Source: Nitrospirota bacterium (GTDB taxonomy: Bacteria > Nitrospirota > UBA9217). Taken from it: a stretch of DNA of 64,000 bases. A program made the position numbers and the translations under genes. The notes under the pieces are model-generated. The model worked only from the letters and a program-made list of their open reading frames with translations, was not told where the DNA came from and ran no database searches. The stretch lies in the NCBI GenBank assembly GCA_963749655.1, contig CAVVOB010000013.1:262685-326684 (forward strand), in the 5' to 3' direction. This document shows, piece after piece, positions 41,569 through 47,741 of this stretch; within the stretch, counting starts at the first letter, position 1; every line of letters starts with the position of its first letter.

Positions 41569-42837
41569 TCAACGGGGCCTTTCGGCATGGCTGCGGGGCG
41601 GGAAGCGGCGGCCGCCTTTCGGTGCGTTGCGGCGAGGCTGCAGGGCAGCAGCCGCAGCCGCCTTCTGCTTTTCCTCGGCGGTCCTTCTGATCTCCCTTAT
41701 ATACATTCCGTCTTCAGCCCATTCCACGGGGATCTTCTGGCCGATGTATTTCTCGATTTCTTCGAGGGAGAACACGTACTCCTCGTCGGCAAGACTGATC
41801 GCCTTGCCGGTCGCTCCGGCCCGGCCGGTGCGGCCGATGCGGTGAACGTAGTCTTCAACGTCCTGGGGCAGATCGTAGTTGATGACGTGGGTCACGGCTT
41901 CCACATGGATCCCCCGGCTGGCGACGTCGGTGGCCACCATGACCGGTATTTTGCCTTCCTTGAAATCGGCGAGGATGCGGAGTCTTTTTTTCTGCATAAT
42001 GTCCCCGGTGATGGCTTCGGCCTTCCACCCGTTGCGGTTCAGGCGCTCGACGACCATGTCGGCCGCCCTTCGGGTGTTGACGAAGATGAGGCAGCGGGTC
42101 GGGGACTCTTTCTTGAGCAGGCCCAGGAGCAGGGGGATCTTCTCATGTTTGCCCACGTGATAGAGGACCTGTTCCACCTGCTCGACCGTGACCTTCTCCG
42201 GCGTGATGGAGATCTTTTCGGGGAGGTTCATGAACTCATAGGCGAGCTCCATGACGCGGTAGGAGAGGGTGGCGGAGAACAGCATCGACTGCCGCTTCGA
42301 GTACGGCTGCATCTTCCGGAGAAGATAGCGGAGGTCGTCGATGAAGCCCATGTCGAACATGCGGTCCGCCTCGTCAATGATGAGGAAGCGCGTTTTTTTG
42401 AGGCTGTATATGTTCTGTTTGTAGTAATCGATGAGCCTGCCCGGCGTGCCGATGAGCACGTCCACGCCCCGCCTGAGCTCATCCATCTGCTTCTGGTAGT
42501 CGATGCCGCCGTACACTGCCAGAAGATGAAACCCGGTGAACTTGCCGAGGCGAAGCGCTTCGTGGTAGATCTGATCGGCAAGCTCCCGTGTGGGAGCGAT
42601 GATCAAGGCCTGGGGAGAGCTCCCCGAGTCAACCTGCGGGTTTCTGATCATGCGGGAGAAAAGAGAAATGAGAAAGGCCGCGGTCTTGCCGGTGCCGGTC
42701 TGGGCCTGTGCTGCGACGTCTTCTCCTCGAACGGCGCGCGGAATCACTGCTTCCTGTACTGGTGTGCCTGTGGTAAAACCTGCGAACTCGATGCCCTGTT
42801 TTACTTCGAAGGGCAGGTCCAAATCACTGAAGTTCAT
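41569..42837 (-). CDS. rhlB: DEAD-box RNA helicase, RhlB-like
   Basis: AQTGTGKT, PTRELA, DEAD, SAT, HRIGRTGR, QSMLFSATLSYRV. Confidence 0.88.
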   Translation of the reverse strand: MNFSDLDLPFEVKQGIEFAGFTTGTPVQEAVIPRAVRGEDVAAQAQTGTGKTAAFLISLFSRMIRNPQVDSGSSPQALIIAPTRELADQIYHEALRLGKFTGFHLLAVYGGIDYQKQMDELRRGVDVLIGTPGRLIDYYKQNIYSLKKTRFLIIDEADRMFDMGFIDDLRYLLRKMQPYSKRQSMLFSATLSYRVMELAYEFMNLPEKISITPEKVTVEQVEQVLYHVGKHEKIPLLLGLLKKESPTRCLIFVNTRRAADMVVERLNRNGWKAEAITGDIMQKKRLRILADFKEGKIPVMVATDVASRGIHVEAVTHVINYDLPQDVEDYVHRIGRTGRAGATGKAISLADEEYVFSLEEIEKYIGQKIPVEWAEDGMYIREIRRTAEEKQKAAAAAALQPRRNAPKGGRRFPPRSHAERPR

Positions 42838-43327
42838 GTCTCTCCGATTCTGATTGCGGACTATTTGTCAACGATTATTTCACGCCAGTATACCATAAGT
42901 CGCCGCATGAACAAAAGAGAAATCTGCCGTTGCCGGGTCCGCCGCCCGTACCTGCCTTCGGGAGTGGAAAAAAATTCAACAGTCCGGCGCAACCTTCGCG
43001 CCCCCGGAACGCGAACGCGCGTGAGACCTTCGCCGTTTCGGGCGGATTTTTTATTGCTCAACCGATGAGCCTCATCCTCGTTCATATGAATAGCAGGCCC
43101 TGTTTGCGCGGTCTAAGTCGGCATTCATTGGTATCAGCATAACCTCGCGCGGCGGTTCGGGTCGTTATGGAGGAGCGAAGCGTCGGCGGAACGGGGGAAG
43201 GATGTAAACAATTAAAATTGTGAATTTTGACAAAAAACTAATATTTTTCGTCAGTGTTTGAATTTGTAATGAAACAGATGTTGATAAATTGTCTAAGCCT
43301 CGGAATAATAATTTTTTTAATTATTAT

Positions 43328-43366
43328 GTTGACAAAATATACACTCTTGTAGTATATTTTGTCAAC
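43328..43366. promoter_or_regulatory. Perfect 15-9-15 inverted repeat (probable operator) overlapping a sigma70 promoter
   Basis: GTTGACAAAATATAC-N9-GTATATTTTGTCAAC; contains TTGACA-N18-TATATT; ends 14 nt before the GTG start. Confidence 0.8.
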
Positions 43367-43380
43367 GAGGTGATTGACAC

Positions 43381-43947
43381 GTGCTGACAAAACTCTTCTC
43401 TTCAACAAGAGCGGAGCTTTTAGGCCTGTTCTTTAACAATCCGGATGATCGGTTCTACCTGCGGGAAATCGCGCGCCACATCGGCAAGGATGCCGCGGGT
43501 ATCAAGCGGGAACTCGACAACCTGGTAAAGATCGGGCTTCTGTCGAAAGAGAAACGGGGCGTTCAGAAGTACTACTTCGCCAACAAGAACTCTCCGATCT
43601 TCTCCGAGATGAAGGGTCTGATCTTCAAGACCACCGGCGCGCAGGGCGCCATGAAGGCGTCGCTCTCGCGGCTGAAGGGGGTCCAGACGGCGTTCATCTA
43701 CGGATCCTACGCACGGGGGTCGGAAAAAGAGGACAGCAACATCAACCTCATGGTGATCGGCCAGGCGAACATCACGGAGCTGAACGATACGGTGATGAGC
43801 CTGGAAGAGAAGCTGAAGCGGGACATCGATTACCTCGTGTTCGACGAACTGGAATACCGCAAGAGGAAGGAATCGAAGGATCCCTTCATTCGGGAACTGC
43901 TGAAAGGCAAGAAAATTTTCCTGGTGGGCAAGGAAGATGACTTATGA
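43381..43947 (+). CDS. Winged-HTH plus minimal nucleotidyltransferase (MNT) protein with degenerate DxD
   Basis: FYLREIAR..RELDNL..GLL HTH; YGSYARG..SNINL in place of SDxDL. Confidence 0.85.
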   Translation: MLTKLFSSTRAELLGLFFNNPDDRFYLREIARHIGKDAAGIKRELDNLVKIGLLSKEKRGVQKYYFANKNSPIFSEMKGLIFKTTGAQGAMKASLSRLKGVQTAFIYGSYARGSEKEDSNINLMVIGQANITELNDTVMSLEEKLKRDIDYLVFDELEYRKRKESKDPFIRELLKGKKIFLVGKEDDL

Positions 43948-44422
43948 AGCGCTGAAAGAGATGGGCATCGTGGAAGAGCGAGCCCCCGAGATCACCGAGA
44001 TCATCGCACTGGTGACGCGGGCCGAGCGGGACCTGTCCACGAGCAAGTTCCTTCACGACAAGGATGAAGAGTGGGCCTTTGCAGCCGCCTACCTTGCCAT
44101 GGCCCGGTCTGCGAGGGCGCTCATCCTGTCCGAAGGGTTCCGGCCCAAGGGCGTGCGGGGCAGGGACGCCCAGAAAACGATCGTGACAGCCGCGGGCGTG
44201 CTCCTCGGCGAGCAGTACAAGAGCCTCATCAACAAATTCGACCGGATGAGAAGGAAATACCAGAGCTTCATGGAAGAGGCGGGCCGCATAATCTCCCGGT
44301 ATGAAGCAGGGCAGGCTATCAAGGACGCAGAGGAATTCTTCGAGCTCGTGAGCACCAGAATACGGGAAAAGTACTCGCAGATGTCACTGCTGAATGATGT
44401 TCCTCAGCTTGTTTCAAGATAA
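43937..44422 (+). CDS. HEPN-domain protein lacking a recognisable R-x4-6-H motif
   Basis: AERDL..A, WA..AAY.AM..ARAL..GFRP, FDRMRRK, EA..AI..AEEF; overlaps MNT stop. Confidence 0.78.
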   Translation: MTYEALKEMGIVEERAPEITEIIALVTRAERDLSTSKFLHDKDEEWAFAAAYLAMARSARALILSEGFRPKGVRGRDAQKTIVTAAGVLLGEQYKSLINKFDRMRRKYQSFMEEAGRIISRYEAGQAIKDAEEFFELVSTRIREKYSQMSLLNDVPQLVSR

Positions 44423-44469
44423 GGCCGCTTAAGTCCGAACGCGGTATGCCGAAAGGGGGTGGAGAACTA

Positions 44470-44532
44470 ATGGCAGCCAAGAAGAAGGCGAAGAAGAAGG
44501 CCACCAAGAAGAAGGCCACGAAAAAGAAATAG
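44470..44532 (+). CDS. Lys-rich micropeptide 1 (20 aa, MAAKKKAKKKATKKKATKKK)
   Basis: GGGGGTGGAG RBS; repeats use synonymous codons (GCA/GCC/GCG, ACC/ACG, AAG/AAA). Confidence 0.7.
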   Translation: MAAKKKAKKKATKKKATKKK

Positions 44533-44561
44533 TTTTTATACTTTGAGTCCCTCAGGTGGGG

Positions 44562-44587
44562 CCGCCGGGGGCAGAGAAGCCCCCGGC
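44562..44587. terminator. GC-rich hairpin after micropeptide 1
   Basis: GCCGGGGGC-AGAGAA-GCCCCCGGC, weak T-tail. Confidence 0.5.
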
Positions 44588-44721
44588 GTATTTACAATAT
44601 CGAGCGGGCGAAAGAACCCGAAATCATAGAGCAGGAACGCAACCGTAATTCATCGGGCTTCATCCATTAACCGAATCGCAGAATCGGAATACTGATTCCC
44701 TAAAGAGGAGGTGAAGACACC

Positions 44722-44778
44722 ATGGCGACGAAGAAAGCCCCTGCAAAGAAGGCGAAAAAGACCACCAAAAAGAAGTAG
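44722..44778 (+). CDS. Lys-rich micropeptide 2 (18 aa, MATKKAPAKKAKKTTKKK)
   Basis: GAGGAGGTGA RBS 7 nt upstream of ATG; similar to micropeptide 1. Confidence 0.72.
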   Translation: MATKKAPAKKAKKTTKKK

Positions 44779-44827
44779 TCTCATGTATAATATAGCTGGA
44801 AGCATAAGGTTTACCCTATGCGACTTT

Positions 44828-44859
44828 ACCACGAAGACGGTCTTCGTGGTTTTGTTTTT
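44828..44859 (+). terminator. Rho-independent terminator
   Basis: ACCACGAAGAC-G-GTCTTCGTGGT followed by TTTGTTTTT. Confidence 0.7.
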
Positions 44860-45027
44860 CATGACCCCCTCTTCGGCCGCTCCGCCGTCCTTTCGGACAG
44901 GCGGGGAGAGGGGTTAGGCCATCCCGCGACCCGGCATTCCCCGGCTCCCGCAGGGTTGCAGCAGACCATCCTCATCCCATCCTTCCCCTTGAAGGAGAAG
45001 GTGCAGCGGAGAAGGATAATTCTATCG

Positions 45028-45381
45028 ATGCACAAGCGGAATTATCTTAAAACTGAACGACACACCCGCTCGGACCGCAACAGGAAGCTGTTGCTCGGCG
45101 CGGCGATCCTCCTCGCGGTCTACCTCCTGGCGTCATTCATCGTGGGCGAAATGGGGCTGATAAAATATTTCCGGATGAAGGCGCAGCACAACGGCCTGGT
45201 AAGGGATATCGCATCGCTCAAGCAGGACAATGCCCGCTTGACCCGCAGCGTGAACGCCCTCAGGACCGATCCCGACCTGCTGGAACAGCTTGCCCGCGAC
45301 AAACTGGGGCTTGCGCGGCCGGGGGAGATAGTGTACTATTACGCCGATCCTGGAGAACAGGGGGCAGTTAACCACAGATGA
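45028..45381 (+). CDS. ftsB: Septum formation initiator (FtsB/DivIC family)
   Basis: Single TM, GEMGL, coiled coil, LEQLARDKLGLARPGE. Confidence 0.85.
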   Translation: MHKRNYLKTERHTRSDRNRKLLLGAAILLAVYLLASFIVGEMGLIKYFRMKAQHNGLVRDIASLKQDNARLTRSVNALRTDPDLLEQLARDKLGLARPGEIVYYYADPGEQGAVNHR

Positions 45382-45534
45382 ACACGGATGAACACTGATA
45401 CATCGGTGGGAAAAAAAACCGGATTGCCGGCGGTTCAACTCGAAATAAAGCAACGCTGAAACCCGTATTTAATCTGTGCTGATCTGTGTTGATCTGTGGT
45501 TCAAATCGGGAAGAAGCAACTTCCCCCGACTCCC

Positions 45535-47741
45535 ATGTCCGATCATCCTCTTTCAATAGCCTTTGTATGGCACATGCACCAGCCGTACTACAAGGACGAC
45601 ATCAGCGGCTCCTACATCCTGCCGTGGGTGCGGATGCACGGCATCAAAGACTATTACGACATGCCGGCGCTCCTGTCGGATTTTCCCGCCATTCACCAGA
45701 CCTTCAACGTCGTGCCGTCCCTGCTCAAGCAGATCCGGGACTACGTCGAGAACGGGGCGACCGACAAGTTTCTCACCCTCACGCTGAAGCCCGCCGCGGA
45801 GCTGGACCAGGACGACAAGCTGTTCCTGCTCAGGAATTCGTTCATGGCGAACTGGGACACCATGATCAAGCCCTACCCCGCATACTGGTCGCTGCTCGAC
45901 CGGAGGGGGTACAGCGTATCGCCGAACGACCTCCGGAACGCGACCCGGTACTACACGACCCAGGATTATCTCGATCTGCAGGTCTGGTTCAACCTGACCT
46001 GGTTCGACCCGGTGTTCAAGCAGAACGATCCGTTCATCAAGAGCCTGATCCAGAAGGGCTCGAACTTCAACGAGAACGAGAAGGCGCTCCTGATCCGGAA
46101 ACAGCGCGACGTCATGGCGCTCATCATCCCCGAATACAAGCGGCTCGCCGAACTCGGCAGGATCGAGCTTACGACGACGCCGTTCTACCACCCCATTCTT
46201 CCGCTGCTGTACGACACGGACCTGGCAAAGATCGCCGTGCCCGACATCCATCTTCCCCAGAACCGGTTCAGGCACCCCGAGGACGCACAGGCCCAGATCG
46301 AGCGGGCGATGGACTACCACGAAAAGCTGTTCGGATCGCGGCCGTCGGGCATGTGGCCCTCCGAGGGATCGGTGGCCGAGGAGATCCTGCCGCTGCTGGC
46401 GGACGCGGGCGTCAAATGGATCGGCACCGACGAGGGGGTGCTCGCCCGTTCGCTCGGGAGGCCCATCGAACGGGATTTCGCCGGGGTCATGAAGAACCCC
46501 GAGGTGCTCTACCAGCCTTACCTTGCCGGCAAGGGCGACAAGCGGGTCTCGATGGTGTTCCGCGATCATACGCTTTCGGACCTCATCGGGTTCGTCTATT
46601 CCAAGTGGGACTACAAGAACGCCGTGCACGACCTGATCGACCGCCTGCACCGCGTCCGGCGCGGCCTGGCGGACGGACCGCACCTGGTGTCGATCATCCT
46701 CGACGGAGAGAACGCCTGGGAATACTACCAGAACGACGGCAGGGACTTCTTCCTCTATCTCTACGAGCGGCTCAGCGGCGAGCAGGGCATCCGGTGCGTC
46801 ACGGTCGGGGAATACCTCAAGGAGCACCCGGCCCAGGCGTCCATCGAACACCTGCATGCGGGCTCCTGGATCAATTCGAATTTCCGCATCTGGATCGGCC
46901 ACGAGGAGGACAACCGGGCCTGGGACCTGCTGTCGCAGACGCGCGCAGGCGCTCACCGATTTCGCCGCCGGGAAGGTCGATCCGGACAAGGTCGCGCAAG
47001 CCTGGGAGGAGATCTACATCGCCGAGGGCAGCGACTGGTGCTGGTGGTACGGGGACGACCACTATTCCGACAATGACGAGGAGTTCGACCTCCTGTTTCG
47101 CACGCATCTGATGAACGTCTACCGCATCATCGGGGTCGACGTCCCCGACGAGCTCCAGATATCGATCATCCGCGAGGACCGGCAGGCGCTGCCGACGGTG
47201 GAGTTCACCGCCTTCATTTCCCCGACCATCGACGGCTCCGTGACGAACTATTTCGAATGGCTGCCCGCGGGCTTCTATGATGTCAGCCAGGGCGGGGGTG
47301 CCATGCACCGCGGCGCGTCGATCATCACGCACATCTACTACGGCTTCGACCTCAAGAACATGTTCATCCGCCTTGATCCCGAGCGGGAGCCTGAAGGACG
47401 AGAAAGTCTCCGAACTCGCCTTTTTCATCAATTTCCTGAATCCCAAGGGCATGGACGTGGAGATCAGGGTCGTTCCCCAGGAACACCGCGTCAGCGCCGC
47501 GCTGTTCCGCGGCGAGAACGGGAAGCGGACCCAGGCCGCCGTCATCAATACCGTCGCTGCAAACGACATCATCGAGCTTGCCGTTCCCTTCGAGCTGATC
47601 AAGGTCGGCCCGAACGAGGAGGTCCAGCTCTTCGTGACCGTCGAGCGGGCGGGCTCGGAGATCGAAAAGTGGCCCTTCCGCGGGTTCATCCAGTTCAAGG
47701 TCCCGACCGACGATTTCGAGGCCATGATGTGGCAGGTGTAG
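45535..47741 (+). CDS. Glycoside hydrolase family 57 (amylopullulanase-like), two frameshifts (~46946, ~47380)
   Basis: WHMHQP, YHPILPL, WPSEG, ILDGENAW, AEGSDWCWW across three ORFs. Confidence 0.88.

Follow-up and report, generated by a model that had tools for sequence, protein, structure and literature searches.

A conserved pseudo-nucleotidyltransferase unit in Nitrospirota as a candidate autorepressor of lysine-rich, histone H1-tail-like peptides

The 64,000-nucleotide stretch of DNA from an uncultured Nitrospirota bacterium that was analysed here (contig CAVVOB010000013.1, positions 262,685 to 326,684 of the forward strand, hereafter the window) carries a compact plus-strand unit between a divergent DEAD-box helicase gene and ftsB/divIC. 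In this unit a gene encoding a winged helix-turn-helix (wHTH) joined to a degenerate minimal nucleotidyltransferase (MNT) domain, the wHTH-pseudo-MNT gene (43381-43947), overlaps a gene for a HEPN protein (43937-44422), and two small open reading frames (ORFs) for lysine-rich peptides follow, sORF1 (44470-44532) and sORF2 (44722-44778). On balance we favour the reading that the wHTH-pseudo-MNT is a non-catalytic autorepressor, derived from a domesticated MNT-HEPN module, which doses polycationic peptides reminiscent of histone H1 tails.

The product of the first gene has 188 residues and is started by GTG behind a Shine-Dalgarno (SD) sequence GAGGTGA at 43367-43373. It is made up of an ArsR/SmtB-like winged helix (residues ~1-70), a linker helix (74-95) and a minimal nucleotidyltransferase fold (~100-188). 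The MNT domain is recognised in Pfam both as Polbeta (PF18765, residues 93-178, E 1e-8, 35.6 bits vs a cut-off of 26.9) and as NTP_transf_2 (PF01909, E 3.2e-5, 24.7 bits vs a cut-off of 21), and the N-terminal winged-helix matches of residues 2-70 all fall under the Pfam cut-offs. An AlphaFold model computed from 52 relatives, with a predicted local distance difference test (pLDDT) score of 86, likewise has an MNT fold joined through a long linker helix to a winged helix, and in Foldseek searches the N-terminal half resembles the SmtB, SqrR, HlyU and CzrA repressors while the C-terminal half resembles the MNT antitoxins 8xeo, 7bxo and 1no5 (E 2e-4 to 2.5e-3). The protein belongs to the Pol-beta MNT fold, though not to the active enzymes of that fold. 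Both carboxylates hold the catalytic Mg2+ in the Pol-beta superfamily, and in a family profile the column of GSYARG...SNINL aligns to SDIDL/SDIDI of the solved MNTs 8xeh and 2rff, bearing out the statement of a first-pass annotation of this DNA that both metal-binding aspartates are asparagines.

The substitution is not confined to the window. NxN is fixed in every member of the window's family that was read, and in a census of the catalytic columns over 103 distinct proteins from 130 loci, some canonical paralogues included, we found NxN in 55, TxD in 10, SxD in 5, DxN, AxD and SxN in 4 each, and rarer states in the remainder. The pair is incomplete in 96 of the 103, and only 7, some of them canonical paralogues, read D/E-x-D/E. 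Furthermore the GS loop is GP in 31 of these proteins. Since the first carboxylate position tolerates N, T, S, A, P, K, R and I alike, the census argues that metal-dependent catalysis has been given up across the whole orthologous group and not just in the NxN family. Conservation is on the other hand strongest in the winged helix: residues 1-92 hold 25 of the 39 columns that are invariant or nearly so. The protein is basic, with an isoelectric point (pI) of 9.2-10, and everywhere in the window's family its gene starts with GTG or TTG. Relatives have two paralogues, L030 and L031 (31-36% identical), that keep SDVDV and SDIDL; no K-rich ORF was found behind them by an ATG-only filter, the looser filter used for the other loci not having been applied to these two. 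Proteins of ~190 residues joining a wHTH to an MNT are widespread in many phyla according to the ESM Atlas, which gives no genomic context.

The HEPN protein has 161 residues, its gene overlapping the MNT gene by 11 nt, and belongs to the PF05168 class (E 2.8e-9, 37.6 bits vs a cut-off of 22), also labelled UPF0332 by JGI. NCBIfam holds no match for it, and a sequence search of the PDB returned nothing significant (best E 0.18); it was the fold search with an AlphaFold 2 model (pLDDT 88) that gave the matches, the best being 2hsb, 1ufb, 1wol, the sacsin HEPN (3o10) and 1o3u at template modelling (TM) scores of no more than 0.76. The single histidine, in FLHD, is not conserved, and no column of 26 aligned sequences has more than 7 histidines, in agreement with the earlier statement that R-x4-6-H is missing. 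What is near-invariant is a motif D102-x-M-R105-R106-[KR]107-x6-[ED]114 on the canonical catalytic helix. As far as the relevant passages of Anantharaman 2013 (PMC3710099) go, an aspartate often replaces the histidine in the HEPN-T (PF05168) class, and such proteins then have a histidine elsewhere; unlike those, the window's HEPN family has no conserved histidine elsewhere. RNase activity of the HEPN protein accordingly seems unlikely, and the missing histidine need not be a recent loss. The first-pass claim that both enzymes had lost catalysis is well supported for the MNT, whose carboxylates are incomplete in nearly all members, and is weaker for the HEPN than had been stated.

An interface between the two proteins is predicted with an ipSAE of 0.68 vs 0.01 for the best control, the runs sharing at least 93% of contacts and the partner having a pLDDT of at least 81, and the HEPN motif region is predicted to face the MNT. 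Of 80 solved complexes 58 attain the docking mark used, as do 2 of 110 mismatched pairs. MNT-HEPN complexes have been solved before, however, and the score may show no more than a resemblance to them. Of the 101 distinct loci with a K-rich ORF, 34 lack HEPN, which is therefore dispensable.

The mini-ORFs encode peptides of lysine, alanine and threonine, with lysine making up 50-60% of both. The product of sORF1, MAAKKKAKKKATKKKATKKK, has 20 residues and a net charge of about +12, and that of sORF2, MATKKAPAKKAKKTTKKK, has 18 residues. Each is preceded by a very strong SD of 12 nt, namely GAAAGGGGGTGGA at 44451-44463, which is invariant in the family alignment, and AAAGAGGAGGTGA at 44702-44714, where relatives read GAAAGGGGGTGA. 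Among 54 family loci the sORF1 pattern was matched in 48, giving 11 peptides from 43 distinct DNAs, and the sORF2 pattern in 47, giving 19 peptides from 41 distinct DNAs. In the class of 63-nt sORF1 sequences (12 DNAs) the variable columns number 0, 0 and 11 at codon positions 1, 2 and 3, a test that is partly circular in that the sequences were picked by peptide pattern, though 48 of the 54 loci were retained. Insertions and deletions in the mini-ORFs are furthermore in frame, and SD, ATG and stop are conserved. The mini-ORFs are on these grounds coding and evidently translated. Neither the 20-residue sORF1 peptide nor its 28-residue extension is present in a collection of 15 billion proteins.

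The association of these ORFs with the regulator gene, which the first-pass annotation had drawn from a single locus, extends to 101 of 103 distinct loci, where no more than 300 nt separate the MNT or HEPN stop from the start of a K-rich ORF; the other two are truncated by the end of a contig or locus, with 67 and 0 bases of sequence left downstream. By the same loose filter 32 of 3000 random positions in the window's genome have a K-rich ORF, and a stricter scan for K-rich mini-ORFs over the 4.27-Mb assembly returned 7 rows, three of which are sORF1, sORF2 and a longer in-frame start of sORF1. A pattern of an SD followed by M-[AP]-x-K-K occurs once or twice in each of the 38 family genomes (38 of 38) and matches 97 of 401 sampled Nitrospirota genomes overall, and wherever coordinates were compared the sites lie just downstream of the MNT gene; a reversed control pattern gave 0 sites. 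The linkage moreover persists where neighbours have changed and HEPN has been lost. Per distinct locus there is one K-rich ORF in 43 cases, two in 52 and three in 6. The first of them ranges from 13 to 102 residues or more with a mode of 19-20, and the long ones of relatives (54 to more than 100 residues) consist of tandem AKKKTT-type repeats. The histone-like micropeptides of the first-pass annotation are thus the short end of a family of H1-tail-like low-complexity proteins that reaches beyond 100 residues.

Two further observations concern the peptides. Where a clade has retained at least one carboxylate (DxN or D/E-x-D; L084/L085, L089, L092 and L093), several peptides end in a single cysteine, reading ...KKGKC, ...KKKKRC or ...KKKKC. 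In addition, a 59-residue H1-like ORF, MVKKEASKPVVKKAVKKAAKKK..., lies outside the window on contig C6 of its genome near 5188 (+), with no SD recognisable by the filter.

Upstream of the regulator gene a perfect 15-bp inverted repeat, GTTGACAAAATATAC-N9-GTATATTTTGTCAAC (43328-43366), with a 9-nt gap and no mismatch, forms a candidate operator that encloses both the -35 box TTGACA (43329-43334) and the -10 box TATATT (43353-43358). With their spacing of 18 these boxes score 11 of 12 in the promoter scan. Relatives in the window's family keep the dyad with one or two mismatches or at least an inner AAAyATACA-N7-TGTATATTT, and in several lineages the A run of the left arm and the T run of the right arm shorten together from 4 to 3. 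A distal element TTGATAAATTGTC at 43281-43293 (+), ~35 nt 5' of the -35 box, is a candidate second operator; it is conserved in each of the 22 loci of the window's family (within L001-L023) whose upstream sequence reaches far enough. The dyad arm GACAAAATATAC and the distal element each occur once in the 4.27-Mb assembly. Beyond the family, a perfect TTGACA is found in all 101 distinct upstream regions, usually 40-63 nt before the start codon, and reads TTGACAA in 96 of them. The conserved winged helix and the dyad over a near-consensus promoter together sustain the earlier view that HTH and operator had been kept. A search for a wider regulon gave 3 genome matches to a loose dyad vs about 1 in shuffles; the dyad matches away from the locus (C22, C32) and one to TTTGT-NN-ACAAA (C20) fall for the most part on long ORFs and were dropped. 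The perfect symmetry of the dyad means that a promoter of the same score (TTGACA-18-TATATT, 11 of 12) stands on the minus strand at 43336-43365, aimed at the DEAD-box helicase gene ~500 nt away, and the dyad site might also control divergent transcription.

The distribution of the module is that of a core gene. Of 24 genomes of the window's family, 23 have a match to the MNT gene, with identities of 80-96%. Nineteen of these have a single match, one (G005) being cut at a contig end, and in the other four the extra matches are weak (28-33% identity) or a 45-residue fragment, so that the gene is single-copy in practice. In more distant Nitrospirota families it is 45-59% identical, and of 440 candidates in a protein-database search with the MNT 238 were hits, the best 120 of them 80-95% identical and from Nitrospirota where named. 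With a family profile at a threshold of E<=1e-25 the gene was found in 174 of the 401 sampled genomes, almost always in one copy and all-or-none by family, with counts of 38/38, 10/10, 36/37, 7/7, 17/18 and 17/17 in some families vs 0/97, 0/45, 0/15 and 0/11 in others. Within the window's family the median ratio of nonsynonymous to synonymous substitution rates (dN/dS, Nei-Gojobori) is 0.046 for the MNT gene (95 pairs) and 0.059 for HEPN (53 pairs), values to be read with dS above 1 and synonymous sites saturated. As judged from these genome comparisons the unit is a self-contained operon, vertically inherited in one large branch of Nitrospirota, and has the marks of a core gene under strong constraint rather than of a mobile toxin-antitoxin pair. 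The domestication that had been suspected from the window is thereby upheld, and a one-off decay is ruled out. One locus, L142, a second site in genome G342, has the MNT frame split in two short ORFs next to an intact SD and 24-residue K-rich ORF and looks like a decaying duplicate of the module, and in L095 and L099, loci that are otherwise 93% identical, MNT or HEPN frames are interrupted, possibly by frameshifts or assembly errors.

K-rich ORFs also occur where the MNT gene does not. In another family, in which the MNT profile at E<=1e-25 matched 0 of 3 genomes, the SD-plus-start pattern matched all 3, and at L137, L138 and L140 the place next to lpxC holds K-rich ORFs of 11-12 residues behind a protein of 157-171 residues in which a coiled coil at the N-terminus is joined to a HARE-HTH winged helix (PF05066, E 1.7e-9). 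A different winged-helix protein, with a different oligomerising part, thus stands in the place of the wHTH-pseudo-MNT as a non-orthologous replacement, which supports the view that the upstream gene contributes DNA binding plus oligomerisation.

RNA from relatives covers the unit in part. Six soil metatranscriptome runs from three studies held small shares of the region, and in the four that were examined, contigs 88-99% alike cover MNT, HEPN and both mini-ORFs. One contig of 380 nt spans 44122-44501, from HEPN into sORF1, and a further one, whose spacer is different, connects the two mini-ORFs; no cover was found at 43200-43376 and 44616-44674. This is weak evidence that the module region appears in RNA libraries and that HEPN and sORF1 can share one assembled contig; neither a single transcript nor its ends or level can be read from such contigs, and RNA libraries can contain DNA. 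In one study, two runs together hold three contigs that start at 44403-44407, some 15-20 nt ahead of the HEPN stop, which could be a 5' end or a processing site of a separate sORF1 RNA. A promoter in the 3' end of HEPN was considered as an explanation, but in the last nine HEPN codons, the part covered by the alignment, synonymous sites vary and no conserved promoter is evident. A roughly tenfold word depth at 44380-44556 relative to the MNT gene (two runs of one study) was not used as evidence of expression, because it is a contig depth, which cannot rank genes, and because the AAG-rich stretch attracts unrelated K-rich sequences.

We would thus picture the unit as follows. The wHTH-pseudo-MNT, probably as a dimer with HEPN as accessory subunit, would bind the dyad over its near-consensus sigma-70 promoter and repress its own operon. 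The dead MNT/HEPN cleft would be a scaffold and perhaps, purely by conjecture, a ligand sensor, with a nucleotide or the free peptide as candidates. A non-ATG regulator start, strong SDs at the mini-ORFs and hairpin-bounded segments of the messenger RNA would yield little regulator and much peptide, and the peptides would act as minimal histone-H1-tail-like proteins that bind polyanions, be it DNA, RNA or polyphosphate. A transcriptional-switch role of the wHTH-pseudo-MNT, together with its repressor function, operator and ligand, is what we infer from sequence. A more elaborate version, in which the whole would be a "micro-histone" system of 11-28-residue polylysine peptides dosed by a sensor-repressor exapted from a dead toxin-antitoxin pair, with the cleft reading a small molecule (a nucleotide) or the pool of free peptide itself, is put forward only tentatively, and we consider it doubtful as it stands.

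Several observations do however weigh against an autorepressor of this kind. The long dyad is not evident outside the window's family, where only TTTGT-TG-ACAAA around the -35 box is shared, and this could be a strong promoter with an UP element. In the family with the MNT gene in 0 of 97 genomes, similar K-rich mini-ORFs are present in 5, and since the three of these that were examined (L134, L135 and L136) have no gene directly upstream of the K-rich ORF, the peptides do not strictly need the wHTH-pseudo-MNT. These three are stand-alone ORFs of 18-21 residues with the same strong SD, and an upstream box GAGAAAATTTTACTCG...CAAACTCTGATATAC is common to L134 and L135 and only partly found in L136. 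Furthermore, the RNA of the mini-ORFs may be made or processed apart from the regulator message, as contigs beginning near the HEPN stop could indicate, which would loosen autoregulation. The conserved charged motif on the catalytic helix means that some HEPN activity or nucleic-acid binding may remain, and polyanion binding by the peptides is suggested by their composition.

Other explanations of the same facts have to be considered. The wHTH-pseudo-MNT, with or without HEPN, might be a nucleoid-associated or site-marking protein that acts with the peptides, for example by nucleating or targeting DNA condensation, the dyad being incidental, and this would suit a basic protein that is obligately co-inherited with the peptides and replaced in another family by a coiled-coil winged-helix HARE-HTH protein. 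We nevertheless regard it as unlikely, since a perfect dyad on the protein's own promoter, with an arm unique in the genome, fits a dedicated autoregulator better, and since the non-ATG start and modest SD of its gene suggest low abundance. Still less probable is a working toxin-antitoxin-like or defence module in which the peptides are toxic through condensation of nucleic acids and the wHTH-pseudo-MNT/HEPN is the neutralising, autoregulating antitoxin. The order of regulator and effector, the overlapping MNT-HEPN genes and the autoregulatory dyad are indeed as in type II/VII toxin-antitoxin operons, and the ancestry lies in MNT-HEPN modules, relatives having the canonical DxD paralogues L030 and L031, but a single-copy unit that is all-or-none by family, with a stable place, native codon usage and a dN/dS of ~0.05, has the profile of a core gene. 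In addition, a basic and not acidic regulator would be a poor neutraliser of polycations, and no known antitoxin model reaches its cut-off.

That the MNT is still active, its NxN or xVD site binding metal and nucleotide and nucleotidylylating the Thr-rich peptides or HEPN, we hold to be very improbable. The protein does retain the MNT fold with its G-[SP] loop, the second position is still aspartate in many orthologues that lack HEPN, a few clades keep D/E-x-D/E, and the peptides do offer threonines; in Pol-beta enzymes however both carboxylates hold the catalytic Mg2+, and here the first position is unconstrained and both are kept in only 7 of the 103 distinct proteins. Finally, the mini-ORFs might be thought of as Lys-codon leader peptides that attenuate ftsB in response to Lys-tRNA charging, given that each has a run of Lys codons followed by a hairpin and that ftsB comes next in the same orientation. 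This is hardly credible and is largely refuted by synteny, since beyond the window's family the next gene is a convergent lpxC, which leaves nothing to attenuate; the ORFs furthermore vary in number from 1 to 3 and in length from 13 to more than 100 residues, and a strong terminator separates sORF2 from ftsB.

The non-catalytic autorepressor that we favour can be compared with known systems, of which the closest is HepT/MntA of type VII (Shewanella SO_3165/3166, 5yep/7bxo; Legionella 8xeh). There, too, the MNT comes first and the HEPN gene overlaps it, the MNT fold is shared (8xeo, 7bxo, 8xeh) and an MNT-HEPN interface is predicted here. The differences are nonetheless considerable: DxD there is NxN here, R-x4-6-H there has no conserved histidine here, and the HEPN is DUF86/HepT (PF01934) there and PF05168/HEPN-T here. 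The present module has in addition an N-terminal wHTH, is always followed by K-rich ORFs, lacks HEPN in a large clade, and is core, single-copy and under strong purifying selection. The NCBIfam MntA_antitoxin model gives 27.7 bits vs a cut-off of 60. Going by its sequence, the unit falls outside the HepT/MntA type VII family, as DxD, R-x4-6-H and the curated models all fail. It rather seems to be an operon of the ArsR autorepressor type that would have descended from MNT-HEPN modules.

Domesticated MNT-HEPN enzymes such as kanamycin nucleotidyltransferase and those of the GlnE/GlnD type offer another parallel, since a HEPN that is not an RNase serves them as a binding or regulatory subunit, according to the parts of Anantharaman 2013 (PMC3710099) that deal with them. 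They would be exapted toxin-antitoxin pairs as the present one would be, but in so far as that account extends the MNT stays catalytic there, whereas the module described here has lost the MNT carboxylates and conserves its fused DNA-binding domain best.

As regards the ArsR/SmtB repressors, for which a dyad operator over the own promoter is the usual arrangement, the N-terminal 85-90 residues superpose on SmtB, CzrA, SqrR and HlyU with target-normalised TM scores of 0.6-0.7, and a dyad lies over the own promoter here as well, as a candidate operator. The sequence models however stay under their cut-offs, HTH_20 with 15 bits vs 27 (E 0.024) and the NCBIfam ArsR-type models by a wide margin, HTH_metalloreg with 16.6 vs 55, and the wHTH-pseudo-MNT is without the metal or sulfide sensing sites, a pseudo-enzyme domain taking the place of the sensor and dimerisation part.

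The peptides may in turn be likened to bacterial H1-like Lys/Ala proteins, among which the sources, as far as their available text goes, describe AlgP at polyphosphate granules, Hc1/Hc2, PhaF as an RNA binder and the head of DdbA. Within the same limits, low complexity of the AKKK/PAKKA type is shared, length is set by repeat number as in Hc2, and the longer orthologous ORFs of relatives resemble such proteins. The present peptides differ in being free-standing products of 11-28 residues with no folded domain, encoded by one to three tandem genes that are never annotated, and in being tied to a dedicated upstream DNA-binding gene. Neither this layout nor free-standing H1-like peptides of 11-28 residues were found described in the literature covered, to which subscription journals and supplementary files did not belong.

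The remaining features of the locus are in keeping with a compact unit. The two larger frames are intact and overlapping, and their G+C contents at third codon positions, 0.77 for MNT and 0.75 for HEPN, are like those of neighbouring genes (0.74-0.84), just as the first-pass annotation had it; the AT-rich leader (43069-43380) has 39% GC vs 56% for the whole window. The gap of 47 nt that had been given between HEPN and the first micro-ORF is exact. It is not featureless, since a short stem-loop CCGC...GCGG (44425-44444, +) without a T-run lies between the HEPN stop and the ribosome-binding site of sORF1. This stem-loop is conserved in window-family loci and may be an RNA stabiliser or processing site, and most clades have a GC-rich hairpin of other sequence just 5' of the SD of the K-rich ORF. 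Downstream of sORF1 a GC-rich hairpin CGCCGGGGG-loop-CCCCCGGCG followed by TATTT (44563-44588, +), with a stem that is conserved and a loop that is variable across the family loci, is a candidate weak terminator or RNA-stabilising end, and was left uncalled by a strict terminator scan. The terminator that had been placed after the second micro-ORF is recovered by the terminator scan as an intrinsic one at 44828-44860 (+), with a 10-bp stem ACCACGAAGAC...GTCTTCGTGGT and then TTTGTTTTT, and is kept in nearly all window-family loci. No Rfam family matches anywhere in 42800-45500 at E<=1.

The neighbours had been named as rhlB and ftsB. The upstream one is a DEAD-box helicase gene by Pfam (41569-42837, minus strand), putatively rhlB, and the downstream one is ftsB/divIC (45028-45381, in the orientation of the unit), followed by a GH57 glycoside hydrolase gene (45496-47076) that keeps its place beside the module across the whole of the window's family. 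This position is however a property of one family only, as helicase and GH57 flank the module nowhere else, and a convergent lpxC follows it elsewhere.

If the proposed reading is true, the unit is a clear natural case in which an entire MNT-HEPN toxin-antitoxin module has become a core regulator of the cell, whose enzyme half is dead and whose steps of decay, from DxD through DxN and NxN to xVD, are still visible across clades. It exposes conserved and evidently translated mini-genes of 11-28 codons that gene callers do not report, and its 103 distinct loci lend themselves well to studying the dosage of highly charged and potentially toxic polycations in bacteria, and raise the question of how such peptides affect DNA, RNA or polyphosphate. 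In the more elaborate micro-histone version, the polylysine peptides would be among the smallest dedicated polyanion-binding gene products, and their supply would be subject to a histone-like supply-and-demand feedback in a bacterium.

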